Positions 16,691 to 48,949 of a DNA stretch of 52,146 nucleotides are shown in pieces. The stretch spans positions 10,816,858 through 10,869,003 of the forward strand of contig NC_057753.1 of assembly GCF_004010195.1 (NCBI RefSeq). Direction: 5' to 3'. Position numbers and translations under genes: made by a program. Source of the DNA: Chiloscyllium plagiosum (taxonomy: Eukaryota). The notes beneath the pieces were generated by a model, which ran no database searches, was not told where the DNA came from, and saw nothing but the letters and a program-made list of their open reading frames with translations. How positions within the stretch are numbered: position 1 is the stretch's first letter; the number at the start of each line of letters is the position of its first letter.

Positions 16691-17239
16691 ATGACTTAAG
16701 TCTTTGGTGAAAGCAGAAGTGTCAATGAGAAGACTAGACTTATAGTGTAGCTTTCAAAGATGTTTTGCCCTGACTGGGAGTAGAGGAAGTTACAATGAAA
16801 TCTATCATTTGTGAGACAGCAACTGAGTGAGGAGTCTGGTATTTTGGTGGAAAATAAAATTCATTGCACTGTAGGAATGAAATGGTTTCAGGTTTACTGG
16901 CAGTAAGTAAAGTGTGCTGAGTGGGGAACCCAGTGAAGTGTCAGGTGGATTTTTGTTTTAAACTGCTCATTTATTTCAGCCTTCAACATTGTATCTCTGA
17001 TGTTGAAAATCAGAGGAAGCGGTGGATCAGTAACTGGTATTGTTAGAAGCCTTACGATTTTCAGCACTGCAGGTACTGCATTGTTTTATCAGCATTGTAA
17101 AGGTTACTAGCAGCAGCCGGAGGTGTGGGATCTATTCATTAGAAACCGTTAAGCAGTTAGATAATGCATTCGATTTGCAGAAGGTGGGAGGTTCTGGATG
17201 CTGTGATTGGGCAAACACAACTGCGGAAAATCATAGAAG

Positions 17240-17745: not shown

Positions 17746-18009
17746 ATCAAGGCAGGTGAGCAATGTTGTGATGTGGAAAATGAACATCAGAGAATGATAG
17801 AAAGGCATACGGAGAATAAATCAACCAGCAATCAATGCTGGATTCAAAAGATCACAAAAATTGTAACTAAAAACTGAATGCTGCACTACAACAAAAGTGA
17901 CACTGCTCCTTCAAGCACTGATATCATGGTAGTATGGTGTCAACTTGAATACAGGTCCTGATTTCTCTGTCCTCTGATCTCCCTGTTCCCACAGAGTGAG
18001 GTGTCATCT

Positions 18010-18125
18010 GCATTCCTAACCCACCAACTGGTCCACACTGGGGAGAGGCCGTTCACCTGCTCTCAGTATGGGAAGGGATTCACCCACTTCTCCCACCTAC
18101 AGAAGCACCAGTGAGTTCACTTGCC
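18010..18125 (+). pseudogene. C2H2 ZNF terminal-finger remnant
   Basis: [32 protein letters not shown]; paralog at ~48010-48115. Confidence 0.85.
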
Positions 18126-18169
18126 ATCACAGGGGGAATTGAAGGAGCAACGGCCAAGTGCCAATATCG

Positions 18170-18400
18170 ACTGGACTATCAACCCAGTTCTGGGGACTTC
18201 CACGTTCGAATCCCACTGTGACAGATGGCAGAATTGGAATTCGGTCAGGAATCTGGAGTTCAGAATCTAATGATGAGACCATTTTTGTAGGGAGAAAAAC
18301 CCATGTGATTCACTCATGTCCTTTTTAGGGAAGGAAACTGCCATTGCGGGAAAGATGATTCCAGACCCACATCAGTGTAGTTGACACTTGACTGCATTTC
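18170..18400 (+). mobile_element. DeuSINE/SacSINE1-like element
   Basis: B-box GTTCGAATCCC plus AAAAACCCAT.TGATTCACTCATGTCCTTTT.AGGGAAGGAAA core; related copies at ~37410-37600 and 48170-48440. Confidence 0.65.
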
Positions 18401-20135
18401 CCCTCACCCCCCCCCCCCCCATCAAATTAGTGGGGAAAAACTTACTTGGATACAGCGATTAGGTTGAAATTGCTGAGTGAGGCAATATTTCCTCTGAGTT
18501 AAGGCTGTAACAAGGATTCAATTTCCCTGTTGTCATTTTATGACAACAAGGACAACTGCAGCAACAACAAAAAAATACAGAGCCAGAATAGCTGTACATC
18601 AGAAAATGTTTAGGAAACACCAGGCCTTTCCTCAGAAGCCACCTACCCGAAACACAGCTTTGTGGTGGTATCATCACTTATTCTGGTGTGCCCTGTACAC
18701 AGCCCATGTTCACACGTCAACGCCATGGTAGGGTGGGGTCCACGCAATCGGATCTTCCTGCCGTGGGGCCACTGATAATTTTACCATTTGGCACCCTACT
18801 GCACTCATAAGCAAGCAGGGTCCTATACACAACACTATGAGCAAGACCAGTCCTACAACTAGTAGCCCATGTAAGATCCAATACCCCCATCCTCCCCAAA
18901 GGGAGGTGAACCATCAGAACCAAGAATCATCTGCTGGGGCAGGCGGTTGTATCGCTACCTTCATATGATTTATTACACTAGTGATATTCTGGGACTCATC
19001 AGGAATATTAAAACAGCATGAGGTATCTAACACTTTGCAGAAGCCCCCTCTCTCGGCCGTCAATATGTCTAGTATTAATCGATTTTGTATCACTGCTTCC
19101 CTAACTGCCGTTAACTCAGTGTTAATGAGTCGAGGCCTTCCTCCGTCTCATTTGCTAACAGTAATATACTATATGTAAGGCCATTAATCTTGTTTATTGT
19201 CACTGTTGTCCCTGCTCCCAAAAGGATGGACCGCCCAATGTTCGCTCCTGGTGTAGTACAGGGGTCTGTGAGGGTGTACCCTTTCCAATGCCGTGGGACG
19301 TCCCTTCGGGTGCATCTGTTACCGGTTCTCGGGGTGAACACTGTTGTGCCAGTGGACAGTATCGCGGGGTAGCAGCACCCTTTCCATCCCAGGGGAAGGT
19401 GGTGGTACCCTTTCTCTCCACAGGCCCATATTATACCCGCCACCATGGTCTAATTGTTGATTAAGGGACAAGCAATGTTTATGGTCATACCATTTGCATA
19501 AGTTGCTGAGCAAGAATCATTGTTCAAGTACAGCGTTGTCGTGCACTGGGAGATCCCCAAGTGGAGTCTTCCCTGATTGGTGCAAATACACGTTTCTCCT
19601 CTGCCTTCCACTTTATGGAAAGCTGTGGTCGGGAGCGTGTCAGCCTTGGGACTGCAGTTAGCCTTGTGTTCGGGTGGTTGTGCAAGATTTTCCCTAATTG
19701 CTCCCCCTGTCAGGGTCAGGGTGGTTGCTGCCCGCAGAAGGAGACAGCTAGCATTTCTCGCCAGGCTCTCTGTAATTTGTTCGGCAGTTCACCGTTAGGC
19801 TGTGTGCAAGCATATCCAACAAGGGTGGCCACCGTCTAATCTCCGGTATTTATTAGGGCCAAAGCACATGCTCTGTTCCCTTCACATCCAGCAATGGCCC
19901 TTTGCACTTCCCAACCTACTGGTGTCGCATTTACGCCATTTATCTCCTGCATGGTCAATTCTACTACCGAGTTAGACTTGCTATCCAGTCAACTCCCTCT
20001 GGATTTGGGCATGACCTTAATGCCCTCTGCCCTTCTTGGGGTTAGGTCCATGATCTGGTTTGGTTGGTTGACATGCCCTGGTGCTACTGTTTTCTGTAGG
20101 ACCTTTTGCACTGCATCTCGGGGTGGGGCGCACTG

Positions 20136-20740
20136 TACCACTATATTCACCTGTCTATAGATCTCTGAGAAGGGTCTATCTATTCCACAATACCACACTC
20201 CCTCATCGTTCTTCTGAGTCTTGGATATTACCACCCATGCCCTGACACCTCCTATCTTGATCATAGAATATCTATTTCCTGTGTCAGGTGTCCCTTTGGC
20301 TGTGGTGGCTACTACTAAGTGCCAGTCACCGGCACCGCAAGGATCCCTGCATAAATATTTATTATCCCATTTATAGTGGACGGCACGGTGGCACAGTTGT
20401 TAGCACTGATGCCTCACAGCGCCAGAGACCCGGGTTCAATTCCCACCTCAGTCTACTGACTGTGTGGAGTTTGCACATTCTCCCCGTGTTTGCATGGGTT
20501 TCCTCCGGGTGCTCCGGTTTCCTCAAACAGTCCAAAAATGTGCATGCTAAATTGCCTGTAGTGTTAGGTGAAGGGGTAAATGTAGGGTCTGGGTGGGTTG
20601 CGCTTCGGCGGGTCGGTGTGGACTTGTTGGGGCGAAGGGCCTGTTTCCACACTGTAAGTAATCGAGTCGTCCTGGTTTCTAAATGGCCATGGGTCGGATG
20701 TGAAGGTCCCCTTAATTCCCTCAGTTAAGATTACCATCTG
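20136..20740 (-). other. CD300/pIgR-like Ig V-set domain within env (split by SINE)
   Basis: After SINE removal: ..DDYKWDNKYLCRDPCGAGDWHLVVATTAKGTPDTGNRYSMIKIGGVRAWVVISKTQKNDEGVWYCGIDRPFSEIYRQVNIVV. Confidence 0.85.
20378..20664 (+). mobile_element. HE1 SINE (near full length) inserted in env
   Basis: A box TGGCACAGTTGTTAG, B box GGTTCAATTCC, HE1 core and tail; AGT duplicated at 20375-20377 and 20665-20667. Confidence 0.93.
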
Positions 20741-20855
20741 CGGCTGCATCCCCTGCCCTTACGAATAGTCCTACTAGGACACTTGCTAAAAGTGTGAGCT
20801 GGAGCAGCCCCATTATTTGTATGAGGCTTCTAATCACTACTTGCACTTAATTGGT

Positions 20856-21245
20856 TCAGGTGCTGTCCGATGTCTCCTCAGGCCCAGCTACACGCTTGCA
20901 ATGGCTGGCGTGTGACCATGTGGTTCTTTCTGCAATCTTAACTGCTGTCTTTGTTGCAAGGAGCACTTGAAACGGTCCCAGACACCTCTTCGCCTTCCAG
21001 TTTTTCCTCCTGAAGTCTTTCACCACTATCCAGTCTCCAGGATCTAGCTCGTGCAGCTTCCCTTCTGCTGGTTGGGGTAGTGCTGCTTTCACTTGATTGC
21101 TTTTCTTCTGGTGTGGCCTGTGACTGTAACTCCCGTACATCTGCTGTTGGGGTACAAATGTTTGTCATAAACATGTCAATCTGCTCACTTGGCGGCTGGT
21201 GGGTTGCCGTTCTTGCTGCTGAGTCTGCCCTTGCATTGCCTGTAC
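20856..21245 (-). pseudogene. pol: ERV pol remnant (RNase H C-terminus joined to integrase C-terminal domain)
   Basis: GTGNARADSAARTA...ELQSQATPEEK is joined directly to QVKAALPQP...PGDWIVVKDF...WSHASHCKR; the IN core is absent. Confidence 0.88.
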
Positions 21246-22454
21246 CTTGTGGGCTGCCCATCTCCACCTCAGCCTTCCCCTGTCAGTCACCCTGTCACTC
21301 AGCCTCCGCAAACAAAGCACCCGTCAGGTGGTCTCAGTCCACTATGGGCATTATGGACTTCAGTGAGGCGTGTAAAGTACCGGGACACGGTCTCACCTTC
21401 CCGTGGTTTATACATTGCTATTTTGGTCATATCCATTTGCAATGGGAGTGCCTCCCTACAGGCGGTTGCCAGCGCTGCAACAAAAACATTAAAGTCTCCA
21501 TTTGCTCCGCTTGCGGATCGGCTACTCTGGCATGGATGTTTGCAGCTGGCCAGGTATACTTGATTTTGGTGACGTCAGCACCTAGTTTTCGTCCCAGGAG
21601 ACGTATCATCTCATGTGACATGGGACGGAACTCAGTACAGAACTTTGTCATTTCTTTGGCAACCTTATTATCTCCAACCTCGCGTGTGTCAGGCAACTGC
21701 CCATAGGCGCTTTCCAGATCCTTCATGGTCCATGGCCGTTGGACCAACACTGGATACCCTTCTGGACCTGCAACTGCAACCATTGGGGCTTGCAGAACTA
21801 CCTGGTTAGATGATCATGTGCTAGTACCCTCACTGCCTGACTCATCATCCGTCGGGGGGTGATCGCAAACAGGCCTTGGATGCCTTTCTGTCTTGGAGTG
21901 GTTGTCCTTCTTTTGGGTTCTTGCTTCAATTGTTTGCGGGTATCAGTTGTTTGCTATCAGTGATCCAGCAGACCCTGAGGCAATGGCCACTGACATGGAA
22001 CTTTCGCCAGGCGGATCTCATAGTGGGGCTGTAGGTCTCAGAGGGCAGTCATCAAGGTCAGGATCTGAAACAGACTTAAGACACTGTACAGCTTTGTTAG
22101 GTTGTTTTCCAGGCGCATCTGCATGTGCGCTGGTGTTTGGTATTTGATCTATCCTTTACTTGAGATTTCCTTTCTCCGATATCAGCCTCAGCCTTCCACA
22201 TGTAATAAGCACTCCAATTCATGGGTTATATTATTCCCTTCCTTTTCTCCTCTCTCTCCTCCAACCTTGACCTCAATATTTCCAGCTGTCTTTTACTAAA
22301 ATTTGCTCCCTCCGGAAAACCACATTCCTTGATCCTCAATTCTAACTGCTTTACAGACTCTGGGCCGTAATTATTTAGCATGTATGTGTATTTTTGGTTG
22401 GCCATTCCAAGTCCTGTGTGGACTCTCCCTTTGTTTGTTCTTGCCGGAGCCCAT
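21246..22454 (-). pseudogene. gag: ERV gag (MA to CA), truncated
   Basis: MGSGKNKQ (myristoylation-type start, ATG 22454), YMLNNYGP..GFPEG, PMVAVAGPEG..VQRPWTMKDL, and MHR-like KPREGETVSRYFTRLTE. Confidence 0.8.
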
Positions 22455-22969
22455 TTTTAGTGTAACTGGAAAAGTCTCTCTCTCTCTTCCCCCTCCCTCC
22501 CTTGGTACAGTTATCTTTTCCCTTCGACTTGCTTTTTACTTCCTGAGGACCCCTCTAGCATTGGGTGCATCCGCCTCAATGCCTTGGTTTTCGTAAACCA
22601 TATACCCGGTACATCTTTGGCGAGTCCAACTCAGCCAGTCCAACTCCAAGTCTAAAACCACCCCTACACTTGCTGTCTCCGAAACACTCTTGAGACGGCA
22701 ATCCCTTTCCCTGGGGCTCTAATACCACACGAGAGTTCACTGAACCCTTTTCCTTCTGTATTTATTTTTTTAGAATGAGTCTCTGTGTAGGATTACTTAA
22801 GCCACGACTCTTACCCCGAGCCTATTCGATTCGAACCCCCAGCACTGGGGCAATCCACAGATTCTCAGTCCTCTCACGCAAAAGGACCAATTCAGCGCTC
22901 GAGATGAAGTGAAAGACCTTCAAGGCGCTGGCGCCTGCGCCTCCTGGGAATCTTCAGAATCTCACCCAG

Positions 22970-23380
22970 TCGCGGAAATTAAATCAACTTGACTCAATTA
23001 TTAGCAAGAGCAAAGAAAGGAGTTTTATTCTAAATCCAGCAGGATTGACTCGTTACACTAAGCCAGATGCCTCAATGTAAGGAGGCCAGAACATCATTCA
23101 AATGCTTGCCTTATAGAGTTTCTTATCATGTTATCAAGGGCAGAGACTGGGAGAGCTCAAGTTGTTATCCACTCATCCCCTGGGCTTAGACATAACAGTT
23201 CTTCAGCTTTCGCTGAGTTCGACTATCGCAAGGTCGAGTCGAATGTTTATGGAATTCAAACAGAGATAAGCTAATGGCAAATCTTCATTAAAGTATCGTT
23301 TACAAAGCTCAGTACAGCATTGAACTGAAGAAAAGCATTCTCTCTTAAATTTCACAGTAAATGGATAATTTTCCATTACA
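22970..23380 (-). repeat. ERV 5' LTR (~410 bp)
   Basis: Minus begins TGTAATGGAAAATTA and ends TAATTTCCGCGAC (imperfect inverted termini); TATAA ~23112, AATAAA ~23025. Confidence 0.8.
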
Positions 23381-32409: not shown

Positions 32410-33267
32410 TCAGTCCTGGGGGTGACCCACAGCAGTGTCACCGGGGGAATCAGATTGTTGAGAATGCTGGTGCCTGCGCTGGTGCTTCCGCAAGTTGCTG
32501 GACAATGTGAACCTCCGCATGCACTCGGGGCAGGCAAATGGCCTCTCCCCAGTGTGGACTCGCAGGTGGGCCAGAAGGTCAGAGGACTGGGTAAAGCCCT
32601 TCTCACACTCGGGGCAGCTGAAGGGCCTCTCCCCAGTGTGGACCCGCCGGTGCTTCAGCAGGTCAGAGGAGCACGTAAAGCCCTTCCCACACTCAGGGCA
32701 TCTGAAGGGTCTCTCGCCGGTGTGGACCCGCCGGTGGGTCAGCAGGTTGGAGGAATTACTGAAAGTCTTCCCGCACTCGGGGCAGTGGAAGGGCTTCTCG
32801 CCACTATGCACCCGCTGGTGGGATACAAGGTGGGAGTAGCGAGTGAAACCCTTCCTACACTCGAGGCAGCTGAAGGGCCTCTCACCAGTGTGGACTCTCC
32901 GGTGGTTCAGCAGGGCAGAGGAATCGCTGAAGGCCTTTCCACACGTGGGGCAGCTGAAGGGCCTCTTGCCGGTGTGGACCCACTGGTGCCTCAGCAGGGA
33001 GTAGGATTTGCTGAAAGCCTTCCCGCACTCAGGGCAGCTGAAGGGCCTCTCACCCGTGTGGCCCCACCGGTGCATCAGCAAGGCAGAGAAATCGCTGAAG
33101 GCCTTCCCGCACTCGGGGCAGGAGAACGGCCTCTCCCCGGTGTGACTGCGCCGATGTGTCTCCAGGGCAGACGGGACACGGAAGCCTTTCCCGCAGTTGC
33201 CACACTTCCACGGTTTCTCCACTGGATGAGATTCCTCGGGTTTCTCCATGGCTGAAGCTTCAGCCAT
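32410..33267 (-). CDS. Tandem C2H2 (Kruppel-type) zinc-finger protein, 285 aa, 9 fingers, no recognisable effector domain
   Basis: Uninterrupted ORF; nine CX2CX12HX3H units with TGE(R/K)PF-type linkers; probable upstream acceptor TTTTTCCAG ending at 33592. Confidence 0.93.
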   Translation of the reverse strand: MAEASAMEKPEESHPVEKPWKCGNCGKGFRVPSALETHRRSHTGERPFSCPECGKAFSDFSALLMHRWGHTGERPFSCPECGKAFSKSYSLLRHQWVHTGKRPFSCPTCGKAFSDSSALLNHRRVHTGERPFSCLECRKGFTRYSHLVSHQRVHSGEKPFHCPECGKTFSNSSNLLTHRRVHTGERPFRCPECGKGFTCSSDLLKHRRVHTGERPFSCPECEKGFTQSSDLLAHLRVHTGERPFACPECMRRFTLSSNLRKHQRRHQHSQQSDSPGDTAVGHPQD

Positions 33268-34299: not shown

Positions 34300-34900
34300 T
34301 CGGAATAATGCACCTAACCTGCACAGCCCTGGGCACTATGGGTAATTTAGCATGACCAATCCACCCTAACCTGCACAACCCTGGGCACTATGGGTAATTT
34401 AGCATGGCCAATCCACCCTCATCTGGGCAAAGTTAAAAAAAAATCACAACATCAGTTCATAGTCCATCAAATTTATTTGGAAGCACTAGCTTTTGGAGCG
34501 CTGCTCCTTCATCAGGTGGTTGTGGATTATAAGATCATAAGACAGCATTTATAGCAAAGCATTACAGTATCATGCCACTGAAATGGTACATTGAACAACC
34601 TAGAATTGTAAAGTCTTTGATCTTTTAGACTGGGTTGCAGGTATCATTAAATAGATAAACCCCAGAACTTCATACAAGTCTCCTTTCTGAGATAATAAGA
34701 TTTTATAACAAAAGGTAACTTGTCAGTTCAGACAATGCATTAAAGGTGTGAGTTCAAAGTTGGTCTATATCCCAATTTAGAGGCAGACTGGTTCTATTTC
34801 TGAAGTGGAATTTACAAAATATTACATGCATTGACTGCCTGAAGATTGTGCATTTTTAGAGCAAAATAGAATGTATTTGCAAATGTGTGTGTGTGTGCGC
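34300..34900 (-). mobile_element. HE1 fragment (34300-34425) and Penelope pLTR (34425-34900)
   Basis: Duplicated GGGCACTATGGGTAATTTAGCATG HE1 unit; pLTR matches the reverse of 24700-25210, including the hammerhead at 34484-34518. Confidence 0.8.
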
Positions 34901-36244
34901 ATAAAAGGAAGAAGTGTATTTCCATGGTGTGTATCTCTATGTTTATTTGATAACAAATGCTTTATTTCTGTTGATGAAAATATTGTTATAAATCGTAGCT
35001 GAGTACTAATAGATGTAAGGGGCAGAGAATTCCTAAAGCAGGGCATGATAAGAATCCTGAGAGAATCATATTTCTGATTAACTTGCTAATGAACAAACAT
35101 TAACCACTAGCACCAACTATGTATTTATTTCTCATTTGGTTCCCTTTTCTTGTTTTATTCACCGCTATGATGACACTCTCTGTCTGAATGGTTGATAAAC
35201 TTTGAGATTGTGGGCTGGGTCTTGATTGACTGAACGTTTTATTGAAGATGTAAAAGGGGGCGTCAAAGTTTCATCAGAATTCCAGCAGAGCTGAGAACAG
35301 ATGACATGTCATTGTAGGAATAGGGAGATCAACAGAGGACAGGGAAATCAGGACCTGAAATCCGAGCTGACACCAGGCTACCCTGTGATCAGCGCTTTGA
35401 TTAGCAGTGCCAACCCTCTACCTTTACCTAGCTTCCCATTCAACTTGAATGCAAAATACCCCCTTATATTCAGGATGCAAGTGAAGTAGTGTCTTTGGAA
35501 GGAATCTCAGCTCAATTATTCTCTTCAATGTGTGCAGCAATTCATTCACTTTTGTTACAATGCAGCACACATTCAGACACAGTCTTTAGTTTCAATTATT
35601 GTCATCTACAGAATCCAGATTTGATTGCTGGTACATTTACTTCCTTGTCCCTTTGTATCGTACGTTGATGTTTATTTTCCACATCACTACATTAGCTCAG
35701 ACAATGCATTAAAGGTGTGAGTTCCAAGTTGGTCTATATCCCAATTTAGAGGCAGACTGGTTCTATTTCTGAAGTGGAATTTACAAAATATTACATGCAT
35801 TGACTGCCTGAAGATTGTGCATTATTTGAGCAAAATAGAATGTATTTGCAAATGTGTGTGTGTGTGCGCATAAAAGGAAGAAGTGTATTTCCATGGTGTG
35901 TATCTCTATGTCTATTTGATAACAAATGCTTTATTTCTGTTGATGAAAATATTGTTATAAATCATAGCTGAGTACTAATAGATGTAAGGGGCAGAGAATT
36001 CCTAAAGCAGGGCATGATAAGAATCCTGAGAGAATCGTATTTCTGATTAACTTGCTAATGAACAAACATTAACCACGAGCACCAACTATGTATTTATTTC
36101 TCATTTGGTTCCCTTTTCTTGTTTTATTCACCGCTGTGATGACACTCTCTGTCTGAATGGTTGATAGACTTGGAGATTGTGGGCTGGGTCTTGATTGACT
36201 GAACGTTTTATTGAAGATGTAAAAGGGGGGGTCAAAGTTCCATC
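34727..36244 (+). repeat. Near-identical ~550-bp direct repeat (34727-35275 vs 35696-36244)
   Basis: Visible alignment with few substitutions; the second copy ends at a gap. Confidence 0.9.
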
Positions 36245-40464: not shown

Positions 40465-43400
40465 GCTACCCTTTGGCAACTTTGTTTGTATTCATTTTTA
40501 ACTTTTAGTACTGACCAATCAAAAATCCCTCCGTCTGAAGTTATAACATGATCTGTCATGGCTTATGTCTTACCCAGCATGCCATGCGAATGTGATAGTG
40601 CCCCATTTTCAATGCAGGCGGCCTACGAGCAAGCGCATGGGGTGGAGTCGGGATCATGTGCACTGAGGGTCCGGAGGTAGGAAGAGAGAATGATGTTAAC
40701 TGCTGTCCTACATTTACCGTGATGGTTCCTGGAAACTCTTTTCACGGGGAAAGAGAGGGAGCATTTCCAGACTTTTCCTCGAGTAATGTTTGACTGGAGT
40801 CGTGCAGTGAGTCTTTCTAATCTCTGTCTCACTCACTTGATAATTTTGGTGGTTTGTAGTTCACTGCGAATGTTAGGCTGCACTCCTCAATCTTCTGCAT
40901 TTATCTTACTCAGACATGGGACCTGAACGTCGTTAGCATCTATTTGCCATCCCTCATTGTGCAATTGAGTTCCAGACTTCAGACTCTTGGCGTTCGATGT
41001 CAGCTTGAATGAGAATGTTGGGCATTTACTGAGCTGTTTGAATTAAGAGGCACAGAGAAGATGACAGAGATAGCAAGGGACAAGACTATGAGCAAAGATT
41101 GGCATTTTATAATGGAACTTCTGCATTACCAGGAGCCTGTGTAGACCAGCAGGCACAGTAATCATAGGTTAAATGAGCTGGGTGTGAGGAAGGCGAGAAC
41201 CAGCTCTGGAATGAAACTAGGTCACTGGACCTGAAACGTTGACTGTACTGTCTGTCCATAGATGCTGCCAGACCTACTGAGGTTCTCCAGCAATTTTTGT
41301 TTCTGTTTCAAATTTCCAACATCTGCAGTTATTTATTTCTTCTTTATTGATCTGGATGATCTGTTGTTTGGGGGAATACAATGTTGCAGCACTTGGTGTG
41401 TGACAGAAGAATCAAACTCAGAGGTGACAAATGCATAGATGTAATTTTCAGAAACAGATGAGCAGATATGGGCAGAGTCAAATATTATTCCTGAGGTTTA
41501 AAGAGGTGGTCATAATTCAAGTGTGGAAATGTTGTTGGAAGTTCATCAGGGAGGAGAGTCATAGAGATCGACAGCATGGAAACAGACCCTTCGGGCCAAC
41601 TCATACATGCTGACCAGATATCTAGTCCCACCTGCCAGCACCCAACCCATATCCCTCCAAACCCTTCCTATTCATATACCCATCCAAATGCCTCTCTTAA
41701 TTGTTGTAATTGTAACCGCCTCCACCATTTCCTCTGGCAGCTCATTCCCTTCACGTACCACCCTCNNNNNNNNNNNNNNNNNNNNNNNNNNNNNNNNNNN
41801 NNNNNNNNNNNNNNNNNNNNNNNNNNNNNNNNNNNNNNNNNNNNNNNNNNNNNNNNNNNNNNNNNNNNNNNNNNNNNNNNNNNNNNNNNNNNNNNNNNNN
41901 NNNNNNNNNNNNNNNNNNNNNNNNNNNNNNNNNNNNNNNNNNNNNNNNNNNNNNNNNNNNNNNNNNNNNNNNNNNNNNNNNNNNNNNNNNNNNNNNNNNN
42001 NNNNNNNNNNNNNNNNNNNNNNNNNNNNNNNNNNNNNNNNNNNNNNNNNNNNNNNNNNNNNNNNNNNNNNNNNNNNNNNNNNNNNNNNNNNNNNNNNNNN
42101 NNNNNNNNNNNNNNNNNNNNNNNNNNNNNNNNNNNNNNNNNNNNNNNNNNNNNNNNNNNNNNNNNNNNNNNNNNNNNNNNNNNNNNNNNNNNNNNNNNNN
42201 GCTACCCTTTGGCAACTTTGTTTGTATTCATTTTTAACTTTTAGTACTGACCAATCAAAGATCCCTCCGTCTGAAGTTATACCATGATCTGTCATGGCTT
42301 TTGCCTTACCCAGCATGCCATGCGAATGTGACAGTGCCCCATTTTCAATGCAGGCGGCCTACGAGCAAGCGCATGGGGTGGAGTCGGGATCATGTGCACT
42401 GATGGTCCGGAGGCAGGAAGAGAGAATGATGTTATCTGCTGTCCTACATTGACCGTGATGGTTCCTGGAAACTCTTTTCACGGGGGAAGAGGGAGCATTT
42501 CCAGACTTTTCCTCGAGTAATGTTTGACTGGAGTCGTGTGGTGAGTCTTTCTAATCTCTGTCTCACTCACTTGATAATTTTGGTGGTTTGTAGTTCACTG
42601 CGAATGTTAGGCTGCACTCCTGTCTTCTGCATTTATCTTACTCAGACATGGGACCTGAACGTCGTTAGCATCTATTTGCCATCCCTCATTGTGCAATTGA
42701 GTTCCAGACTTCAGACTCTTGGCGTTCGATGTCAGCTTGAATGAGAATGTTGGGCATTTACTGAGCTGTTTGAATTAAGAGGCACAGAGAAGATGATAGA
42801 GATAGCAAGGGACAAGACTATGAGCAAAGATTGGCATTTTATAATGGAACTTCTGCATTACCAGGAGCCTGTGTAGACCAGCAGGCACAGGAATCATAGG
42901 CTGGGTGTGAGGAAGGCGAGAACCAGCTCTGGAATGAAACTAGGTCACTGGACCTGAAACGTTGACTGTACTGTCTGTCCATAGATGCTGCCAGACCTAC
43001 TGAGGTTCTCCAGCAATTTTTGTTTCTGGTTCAAATTTCCAACATCTGCAGTTATTTATTTCTTGTTTATTGATCTGGATGATCTGTTGTTTGGGGGAAT
43101 ACAATGTTGCAGCCCTTGGTGTGTGACAGAAGAAACAAACTCAGAGGTGACAAATGCATAGATGTAATTTTCAGAAGCAGATGAGCAGATATGGGCAGAG
43201 TCAAATATTATTCCTGAGGTTTAAAGAGGTGGTCATAATTCAAGTGTGGATATGTTGTTGCAATTTCATCAGGGAGGAGAGTCATAGAGATGTACAGCAT
43301 GGAAACAGACCCTTCGGTCCAACTCATACATGCTGACCAGATATCCCAATCCAATCTAGTCCCACCTGCCAGCACCCAACCCATATCCCTCCAAACCCTT

Positions 43401-43500
43401 CCTATTCATATACCCATCCAAATGCCTCTTTTAATTGTTGTAATTGTAACAGCCTCCACCATTTCCTCTGGCAGCTCATTCCATACACGTACCACCCTCT
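40465..43500 (+). repeat. Near-identical ~1.3-kb direct repeat flanking a gap (40465-41765 vs 42201-43500)
   Basis: Visible alignment with scattered SNPs and short indels on either side of N-run 41766-42200. Confidence 0.92.
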
Positions 43501-47199: not shown

Positions 47200-48115
47200 A
47201 CTGTAACCAGTGATTCAGCCTGAAAAGAAGCCATACCATTGCCAGTGCAGGGAAACCACACTCGTGATCTGTGTGAGGTCCCAGCTTCAGTTGATCTTCC
47301 AACCTGGAGAAACATAAGGAATAGTAAGTTTTGAAAAGATTTGCAGCTAAGGTTGAGGTTCTGGATAGAAGTTTGCTCACTGAGCTGGAAGGTTCATTTT
47401 CACACGTTTCGTCACCATACTAAGGAACATCATTAGAGAGTCTCCGGTGAAGCACTGTTGTTATGTCCCATTTGTGTTTAGGTTTCTTTGGGTTGATGAT
47501 GTCATTTGTTTTTCTTCTCAGAGCATGGTAGATGGGGTCGAAATTGATGTGTTTGTTGATAGAATGCCGGCTGGAATGCCATCCTTCTCAGAATTCTTAC
47601 GCATGTCTCTGTTTGGCTTGTCCTAGGATAGATGTTTTGTCCCAGTCAAAATGGTGTCATTCCTCATCTGTATGTAAAAATATTAGTGATAGTGGGTCAT
47701 GTCTTTCTGTGGCTAATTGATGTTCATGTATTGTGCTGGCTAGTTTTCTGCCTGTTTGTCTAATGTAGAGTTTGTTACAGTTCTTGAGAGGTATTTTGTA
47801 AATACTGTTCTGTATAAGGTATTTGAAGTTCATTAGTTGCTGATCCACCAGCGGGTCCACACTGGGGAGAAGCCATTCACCTGCTCCATCTGCAGGAAGT
47901 GGTTCACTCAGGTGGGCAACCTGTGGACCCACCAGAGGGTCCACACCCGAAAGAGGCCATTCACCCGCTCCAAGTGCGAGAAGGGGATCACGTGCTCAGC
48001 TAAGCTGCTGACCCACCAACAGGTCCACAACGGGAAGAGGCTGTTCACCCGCTCTGTGTGGGAAGGGATTTACCTGCTCCTCTCACCTACAGCGGCACCA
48101 TCGAGTTCACTTGCC
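47200..48115 (+). pseudogene. C2H2 ZNF pseudogene interrupted by a Penelope fragment
   Basis: N-terminal remnant (~47230-47320; SSNLEKHKE) and [36 protein letters not shown]..., with lost Cys residues and a frameshift. Confidence 0.88.
47325..47820 (-). mobile_element. Penelope-like element 3' end (GIY-YIG endonuclease, decayed hammerhead)
   Basis: SIYKIPLKNCNKLYIRQTGRKLASTIHEH; hammerhead-like motif ~47400-47440. Confidence 0.88.
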
Positions 48116-48949
48116 ATTGCAGGGGGATTAAAGGAGCGACAGCTGAGTGCCATTATCGACTGGACTATCAACCCAATTCTGGTAACTGCCGGGTTCGAAT
48201 CCCGCCATGGCAGATGGCAGAATTGGAATTCGGTCAGAAATCTGGAGTTCAGAATCTAATGATGAACCCATTTTCAGGGGAAAAACCCCATCTGATTCAC
48301 TCATGTCCTTTTTTAGGGAGGGAAACTGCAGTTGTGTGAAAGGATTCACTCAGTCAAACCCAGCTGCGTCTGGCCTCCAGTGACTCCAGACCTACAGCAG
48401 TGTGGTTGACTCTTTACACCTGACCACCCTCCTGGCAAATGAGTGAGGAGAAACTTACTTGGTTACAGTGTATGATTGAAATTGCTGAGTGAGGCAACAT
48501 TTTGTATGCGTTTAGCTGTTTTATTATGTTCAAAGGGACAAGATCAGCTGACCAATAGTAAAGGATGTGGGGTGGGTGGTAGGGTGAGTGCGTATGCTTT
48601 GATCTTGAACTGTTGAAAAAGCAAGTAAGTAACTTTTTGGACACCATTTTGCTGGGGGAGATCTGAAGCTGTAACAAAGTTGGGTCACAATAAAGGTTAC
48701 CTGAACTTACCGCTGGACTCAGACTCTCCTTGAAAGCTGTGAGATCCATTAGGTTTTTGTTTTAAAGTGGCTGAATTCTTTAGTTTACAATGTAAGGTTG
48801 TATCAGAAAGAGCAGTGAATGAGTAGCTCATATCGTTGGAAATTGTAAATTTTTCAGGAGTGCAGGTGCTGCATTGTTTCATCTGCATTGGAAAGTCTAC
48901 TGTTAGCACTGGCAAGATTGGGCTATGTTCACTAGAAATGATGTGGCAG

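Follow-up and report, generated by a model that had tools for sequence, protein, structure and literature searches.

An env gene with an immunoglobulin V domain

The window analysed in this report is a stretch of 52,146 nucleotides from Chiloscyllium plagiosum (contig NC_057753.1, positions 10,816,858 to 10,869,003), and the positions given below are counted from its first letter. Between positions 18530 and 23380 it carries, on the minus strand, a truncated and internally deleted provirus of a multi-copy family of gamma-type endogenous retroviruses (ERVs). The subject here is the envelope (env) gene of this provirus. The envelope protein (Env) of the family has an immunoglobulin (Ig) V domain between its signal peptide and the C-domain of its surface subunit (SU), and this domain is related in sequence to those of the host receptors pIgR and CD300. 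A preliminary description, made from the letters of the window, had placed a series of env features on the minus strand between 18710 and 20813; all of these are present, displaced by at most 2 nt (Table 1).

The ATG at 20813-20811 opens a hydrophobic leader, MGLLQLTLLASVLVGLFVRAG, which from its hydrophobicity is probably a signal peptide. Past a change of frame the first half of the V domain reads VILTEGIKGTFTSDPWPFRNQDD (tblastn frames -2 and then -3). The second half, YKWDNKYLCRDPCG...VNIVVQ, lies within the open reading frame (ORF) 19989-20399 and matches the V-set profile with E = 8.7e-5 (23.1 bits). The two halves are parted by a repeat of 290 nt, a short interspersed element (SINE), of which at least four further copies, 77-84% identical, occur in the window; between window positions 17000 and 24000 no Rfam model reached its gathering score. 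It had been proposed that excision of 20378-20667 joins the halves, and excision of the repeat as delimited here (20376-20665) gives the same joint, since AGT stands at both of its plus-strand ends. Compared by tblastn with natural ORFs of sister copies, env is read in frame -2 (20813-20751) and frame -3 (20752-20666) up to the 290-nt insertion, and beyond it in frame -2 (20375-19851, one stop), frame -1 (19851-19132, three stops) and frame -3 (19129-18893, one stop). The cysteine expected in strand B had been sought at PWPF, which is three residues off; its true place is the serine of FTSDP in the window, where the sisters read FTCDP. With the SINE, this Cys-to-Ser replacement, at least three frameshifts and at least five in-frame stops the window copy of env is dead.

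Table 1. Features of the provirus in window coordinates, in the order of transcription.
Feature	Position	Strand	Basis
5' long terminal repeat (LTR)	22969..23380	-	82.2% identity over 416 nt to the LTR of sister L002, blastn
gag remnants, several broken ORFs	21299..22456	-	e.g. ORF 21427-21813 SSNQVVLQAPMV
Integrase C-terminal domain ORF	20856..21164	-	MLVIN_C, 38.3 bits
env start and probable signal peptide	20751..20813	-	ATG 20813-20811; tblastn of L013 residues 6-26, frame -2
V-domain strands A-B, past one frameshift, Ser for B-strand Cys	20666..20752	-	tblastn of L013 residues 29-57, frame -3, 83% identity
SINE insertion, 290 nt, AGT duplication at its flanks, private to the window copy	20376..20665	+	SINE in none of the 27 sisters covering the site
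V-domain strands C-G, KYLCRDPC ... VWYCGIDRPFSEIYRQVNIVV	20121..20375	-	Pfam V-set, residues 12-83 of ORF 19989-20399, 23.1 bits
Pro/Gln-rich linker, in-frame stop at its end	19989..20120	-	ORF translation; tblastn of the L019 ORF covers 20126-19851, 1 stop
CWIC, CXXC motif of SU	19810..19821	-	read from sequence; one natural ORF holds both CWIC and the Ig domain in L002 and in L014
RCTRR, furin-type cleavage site between SU and transmembrane subunit (TM)	19303..19317	-	in ORF 19111-19449
TM ectodomain, immunosuppressive domain (ISD) and CX6CC (CKVLDTSCC)	18914..19147	-	TLV_coat, 37.4 bits, profile positions 448-486
Membrane-proximal region, membrane anchor, short tail, env stop	18710..18913	-	ORF translation WFTSLWGGWGYWILHGLLVVGLVLLIVLCIGPCLLM
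env-to-LTR spacer	18530..18709	-	sisters match only the first ~140-186 nt

The env DNA has at least 58 matches of 78-89% identity on many contigs of its own genome (3.56 Gb), a lower bound as 40 of 384 candidates were scored. The sister set consists of the 29 loci fetched first (numbers with L denote loci of this genome); further copies of the V domain were found later. All 29 carry the V domain between integrase and SU. The segment with the signal peptide and strands A-B directly abuts the segment with strands C-G, with no insertion, in 27 of them, while L008 and L027 have no match to the former. In L003, L010, L013 and L022 a natural ORF runs from the signal peptide through a complete V domain; in L002, L014 and L006 one covers both the V domain and the CXXC site, which reads CWIC in the first two and CWIR in L006. 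The V domain is uninterrupted in four of the 29 copies, the B-strand cysteine is kept in 26, and all four cysteines are present in 20. Farther downstream, L019 has a natural ORF of 421 aa that runs from the linker into TM with the CXXC, furin-type, ISD and CX6CC features inside it (TLV_coat 38.7 bits); the counterpart of the window's RCTRR is QTRRD in L019 and a K/R-rich site in cyprinid Envs. The natural ORFs are continuous, and with them the idea that the V domain belongs to a separate accessory ORF is rejected.

It could also be argued that the Ig-like segment is nothing but a chance ORF, or a host exon beside the provirus, given a broken window copy whose half-domain scores under the Pfam cut-off. 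The same domain is found at the same place in all 29 sister loci, and intact Env ORFs of other fishes contain it too (see below); this explanation was rejected and has a probability close to nil. Nor has the V domain drifted freely. The ratio of nonsynonymous to synonymous substitution rates (dN/dS), taken over pairs of the 29 copies that are not independent of each other, was 0.50 in frame (bootstrap 0.38-0.65) as against 0.91 and 0.86 in the wrong frames. The V domain was therefore constrained while the lineages diverged, that is, it was under purifying selection.

The family has the properties of LTR proviruses, i.e., LTRs, pro/pol fragments, an integrase directly upstream of env and dispersed copies. 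A sister locus matches RVP with 24.1 bits and RVT_1 with 27.0 bits, the latter under its cut-off of 29.6. Sister provirus L002 has its own LTR pair (about 400 nt, 92.6% identical). No LTR pair was found in the window by self-blastn and repeat search, and the 5' LTR alone is present; homology to the sister copies breaks off at about 18530, a 3' LTR is lacking and the L002 LTR probe matches only 18530-18587 there. The gag-remnant ORFs of the window, such as 21427-21813, recur in the gag region of sister L031 (7165-7575), and a Pfam search with the gag-region ORFs gave no matches. Most of pol is deleted upstream of the integrase ORF. The junction is placed near 21098/21099 because positions 1-66 and 67-309 of the integrase segment lie about 850 nt apart in sisters such as L004.

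Fragments of env may have spread in other ways too. Many near-identical open frames of 106 aa occur at L055-L059 (contig C8 at 35.6, 38.4, 68.9 and 71.6 Mb, and contig C101466) and in similar rows, clustered on C8 and unplaced contigs. They hold only strands C-G and the start of the linker, end in ...APGLEK(I/M)NVQ, and look like a truncated env fragment amplified within another repeat or a segmental duplication. Just past the truncated 3' end of the provirus, at 17962-18354, the window has a C2H2 zinc-finger-like open frame (HTGERPFTC...) within a stretch of 340 nt that is repeated with 84% identity at 48008-48342, 30 kb away. Elsewhere in the window are an 84-nt tandem array of at least seven overlapping units (32423-33226) and two local duplications, 34725-35275 / 35694-36244 (97.6% identity) and 40465-41765 / 42201-43499 (95.9%).

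Family and fold of the V domain

From sequence comparison the env V domain is assigned to the vertebrate pIgR/CD300 (CMRF35-like) subfamily of V-set domains. Two of the sister ORFs exceed the gathering cut-off of the Pfam V-set profile (PF07686, 26 bits), L013 with 34.4 bits and L003 with 29.9 bits, over profile positions 2-101 of 109. When the window ORF was compared by phmmer with 1.84 billion representatives, 143 matches were obtained at E<=1e-3, and the named host proteins among them are pIgR-like and CMRF35-like. A profile built solely from host sequences recognises the shark-type ERV domains with 71-85 bits, percomorph Envs with 82-95 bits, and the cyprinid Envs that have a complete V domain (P0146, P0147, P0149 and P0150; numbers with P denote database proteins) with 44-61 bits. 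Against the sequences of the Protein Data Bank (PDB), the cyprinid Env profile finds human pIgR (E = 1.1e-6) and CD300lf (2e-4), and P0008, an Env of Xyrichtys, finds PD-1, pIgR and CD300a at 7e-6 to 8e-5. Identity to host domains is 25-36%.

The cysteines point the same way. The B-F pair is canonical, and a further pair in KY.C..PC is spaced as in host relatives from fishes: the two residues, C66 and C70, are invariant or nearly so across 62 host and 4 ERV rows, with the C-x3-C spacing of P0029 and P0043, and they may form a putative C-C' disulfide. The F-G signature D.G.Y/W.CG.D is likewise among the conserved columns of the V-domain alignment. Host CD300/CMRF35-like proteins and pIgR have the V-set fold, the KY.C..PC pair and the D.G.Y/W.CG.D signature in common with the ERV domain. 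Unlike them, the ERV domain has no stalk, anchor or immunoreceptor tyrosine-based inhibitory motif (ITIM) of its own and is fused to a retroviral SU-TM.

The AlphaFold2 (AF2) model made with a 66-row alignment is an Ig beta-sandwich with a predicted local distance difference test (pLDDT) score of 82.3, whereas the single-sequence model of the window ORF (pLDDT 40.4) was unusable. Ranked by VIA Z, the structures closest to the predicted fold are CD300a and CD300c, with TREM2, CD300lf and D2 of pIgR within about 1.4 Z. The ESM Atlas gave FCAMR-like, CMRF35-like and pIgR-like proteins scored at most 0.81, which are leads only. The proposal that a CD300/pIgR-type V domain occupies the receptor-binding position of a gamma-type Env is thus borne out by V-set scores, host-profile scores, fold and natural ORFs alike.

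By E-value the first Foldseek match is a retroviral structure, Env-Pb(1)'s receptor-binding domain (RBD; 6w5y, E = 6.3e-8), and it is conceivable that the V domain is a scarcely diverged representative of the classical RBD-C class, i.e., of the RBDs of murine leukaemia virus (MLV, 1AOL), feline leukaemia virus (FeLV, 1LCS), Env-Pb(1) (6W5Y) and a zebrafish ERV (ZFERV, a model), with no separate capture; it would then be an ordinary RBD-C domain that has kept the look of its host ancestor. Both kinds of domain are N-terminal, have an IgV-like fold, and stand ahead of a Pro-rich linker and a CXXC-bearing C-domain; the order signal peptide, V domain, Pro/Gln linker and CW.C, as found in natural ORFs of fish Envs, is the layout by which the RBD-C class is recognised. 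In a preprint by Hotzel, RBD-C is described as an IgV-like fold that is modified and lacks the B-F disulfide, the RBD of ZFERV is modelled as of Pb(1) type, no distinct RBD type is said to have been found among CXXC-bearing gamma-type Envs, and an origin of RBD-C from an unidentified host IgV gene is left open (10.1101/2024.03.17.585361). The alignment with 6w5y is nevertheless poor (TM-score 0.46-0.51, root-mean-square deviation 6.8-9.9), and the entry falls outside the 50 best by VIA Z, all of which score at least 10.9. No RBD of Env-Pb(1), MLV or FeLV is among the best 60 PDB sequence matches for L013 (27 in all), P0150, the cyprinid profile or P0008, a statement about the best rows that is not proof of absence. 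The classical RBDs, as the same preprint describes them, lack the B-F disulfide, have expanded VRA, VRB and VRC loops and show no clear similarity in sequence to host IgV domains, whereas the fish domain has the B-F cysteines, no large loop expansions in its model, and sequence matches to host proteins. We therefore consider it unlikely that the fish domain belongs to the classical class.

Distribution among fishes and origin

The same V domain is found in Env proteins of Callorhinchus, of cyprinids and of percomorphs. The SU-TM ORF of L019 is 41-43% identical to seven cyprinid ERV Envs and 36% identical to an eighth, and 37-39% identical to percomorph Envs. A search from P0008 gave intact Env ORFs of 611-623 aa, one of them from Siganus, that match both V-set (35.9-43.3 bits) and TLV_coat (48-60 bits). 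No long-protein relative of the L010 ORF, which covers signal peptide, Ig domain and linker, was found among 5075 candidates, a weak negative result that was overturned by the searches with L019 and P0008.

Six of the best apparent host matches from phmmer are Env fragments, namely P0007, P0008, P0010, P0011, P0023 and P0039. The Env block C.GN.AC.. follows the Ig domain in P0007, P0008, P0010 (from Callorhinchus) and P0039, and CW.C is intact only in P0008; P0011 has no Env motifs and is assigned to the ERVs by its place in the tree and sequence similarity only. P0023, an unnamed ENA protein, has the V domain fused straight to the membrane-proximal region and anchor of Env, the SU C-domain and TM ectodomain being deleted, and would as read from its sequence be a membrane-anchored form with the Ig domain only. 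Several database records are mislabelled. P0010 (UniRef A0A4W3INH6, Callorhinchus milii) is named 'Immunoglobulin V-set domain-containing protein', and P0008, P0153 and P0193 are among entries of the 'uncharacterized protein' type that are Envs or Env fragments. Relatives of the ERV Env in Labeo rohita carry the name 'Syncytin-A'.

Most of the cyprinid Envs that retain their N-terminus, namely P0146, P0147 and P0149-P0152, are extended N-terminally by a glycosylated stretch of about 50 residues with a furin-like R-Q/R-R-x-K/R-R at its end, just before the V domain, and this may be a propeptide or a second cleavage site. At the furin-like position P0153 has KRE only, and the extension is lacking in the shark-type and percomorph Envs.

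In a careful tree a branch with 100/99 support separates the 20 ERV-borne V domains from 59 host rows, the host rows being every second of the 118 left after eight long-branch rows had been dropped. The viral copies are thus monophyletic with respect to the host rows sampled. When eight host exons from the window's own genome were added (87 rows, quick tree) the ERV group again stood on one side of a branch (97 SH-aLRT), with the ERV rows of Callorhinchus and of the window genome grouped together (80). The fusion point and the cysteine spacing are alike in the shark-type, cyprinid and percomorph groups, and the block of C.GN.ACAL and CW.C stands just after the linker.

These observations bear on whether shark-type and teleost ERVs acquired V domains independently. 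Such convergence would agree with the low identity of 24% between the shark-type and goldfish domains, and also with the long branches of the cyprinid rows, for which the tree tool raised its 'long branches meet' flag. It is hard to reconcile with the position of all 20 ERV domains behind a 100/99 branch, and it is disfavoured by the common fusion point and cysteine spacing in all groups and by an Env backbone that is homologous throughout (37-43%), the C.GN.ACAL and CW.C block included. Independent capture is accordingly judged very improbable. Capture of the domain by a shark virus had been proposed; capture from a host stands, and restriction to a shark virus does not, since the Envs of Callorhinchus, cyprinids and percomorphs share the domain. 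The comparisons instead indicate a single capture shared by a fish-wide lineage.

Candidate donors were sought in the window's own genome. With a teleost CMRF35-like query the best matches were the ERV copies themselves. On contig C26, open host V-set exons that are CD300/pIgR-like stand in a tandem cluster at 11026472-11476142, and others lie at about 7.5 Mb (L047-L054). They score 56-78 bits against the host profile and fall with the pIgR-like domains of teleosts rather than with those of the ERVs. The eight exons sampled there reach at most 32 bits against the ERV domain, as compared with 50-57 bits for teleost host domains; the donor is therefore none of the local genes sampled.

Position in Env and possible function

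Signal peptide and SU C-domain have the V domain as the only folded module between them, and it is followed by the Pro/Gln linker and CXXC. The RBD of gamma-type Envs occupies the same N-terminal position (PMC9967133). By this analogy the V domain is most likely a receptor-binding or attachment head, and we put at about 0.88 the probability of the reading as a whole, i.e., that the window holds one copy of a lineage-wide gamma-type Env with a once-captured pIgR/CD300-type V domain that most likely serves as such a head. On this reading an ancestor of the retroviral lineage acquired the V domain from a host gene in a single event, and the lineage later entered cartilaginous fishes (the window genome and Callorhinchus), cyprinids and percomorphs. 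On the cell the V domain would bind a surface ligand, and binding would then release the fusion machinery controlled by CXXC and CX6CC, as in other gamma-type Envs. By analogy with the pIgR/CD300 family, whose ligands are aminophospholipids and polymeric Ig, phosphatidylserine or phosphatidylethanolamine (PS/PE) and IgM are candidate ligands only.

There are several points that weigh against this reading. First, two of the four sister ORFs tested stay under the V-set cut-off (L010 with 17.7 bits and L022 with 17.5 bits), as does the window half-domain with 23.1 bits, and the cyprinid Envs match the same profile with E of 0.005-0.09 only. Second, the trees are unrooted, comprise about 108-110 columns, and draw all of their host rows from the 143 matches seeded with the ERV domain; for these reasons monophyly does not identify the donor, and it is possible that an unrecognised donor lies inside the ERV clade. 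Third, the dN/dS value comes from the non-independent pairs noted above. Fourth, the receptor-binding role is drawn from the position of the V domain at the gamma-type RBD site together with analogy.

The main rival to a receptor-binding role is that the V domain enhances attachment, or, by mimicry of a host receptor of pIgR/CD300 type, serves as an immune decoy or modulator, with the true receptor bound by the SU C-domain. A model in the Hotzel preprint, in which a newly acquired RBD is first a generic attachment module (10.1101/2024.03.17.585361), would fit such a role. So would the habit of large DNA viruses, which often carry captured Ig domains for immune modulation; the BFVD structural matches of the V domain are poxvirus hemagglutinins and herpesvirus CD200, UL and vIgFam proteins. 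Nevertheless, all branches of the lineage that were examined have kept the domain, which is under purifying selection, no other independently folding module is found N-terminal of the C-domain, and no secreted separate form was seen, save ORFs like P0023 that are truncated or carry deletions. A role in attachment alone or as a decoy thus seems the less probable explanation, and a receptor-binding or attachment head is preferred.

Host Ig sequences in retroviral env genes are not without precedent. The closest prior case found is the SIRP-like IgV domain of mammalian alpha-like Envs, which the preprint presents as the first host-derived RBD (10.1101/2024.03.17.585361). This SIRP-like RBD-C is likewise a host-type IgV domain with the B-F disulfide, is N-terminal in SU, betrays by its sequence an origin from a family of host immune receptors, and occurs in several host orders. 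As described there, its donor is SIRP rather than a pIgR/CD300-like gene, its Envs are without CXXC whereas the window copy has CWIC, and it is known from mammals whereas the fish Env is found in cartilaginous and bony fishes. SIRP is absent from the 27 PDB sequence matches for L013 and from the best 60 for P0008, the best listed being CD300a, PD-1, pIgR and the T-cell receptor (TCR). The crocodilian provirus CrocERV31 has a whole host nectin-3 mRNA with three Ig-like domains in place of env and under purifying selection (Chong et al., 2014; PMC4299795). It shares with the fish ERVs the presence of host Ig-superfamily sequence at the env position, whereas in the fish case one V domain alone has been joined in frame to a gamma-type Env that is otherwise complete. 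In the literature covered, which did not extend to the supplementary Env list of the preprint, no fish ERV Env with a pIgR/CD300-type V-set domain was found described.

The origin of retroviral RBDs is an open question, since these domains evolve fast. The fish lineage described here is gamma-type and CXXC-bearing, and its head can be found by plain sequence search. The finding narrows the search for a ligand to those of the pIgR/CD300 family, and it offers a possible bridge at the level of sequence to the classical gammaretroviral RBD fold. The fish case may bear on the question that the preprint leaves open. It is tempting to go further and suppose that the fish Env lineage still shows the classical gammaretroviral RBD in its ancestral state, which we regard as quite unlikely; were it true, fish ERVs would be the link in sequence that names the 'unidentified vertebrate host gene' sought in the 2024 preprint.

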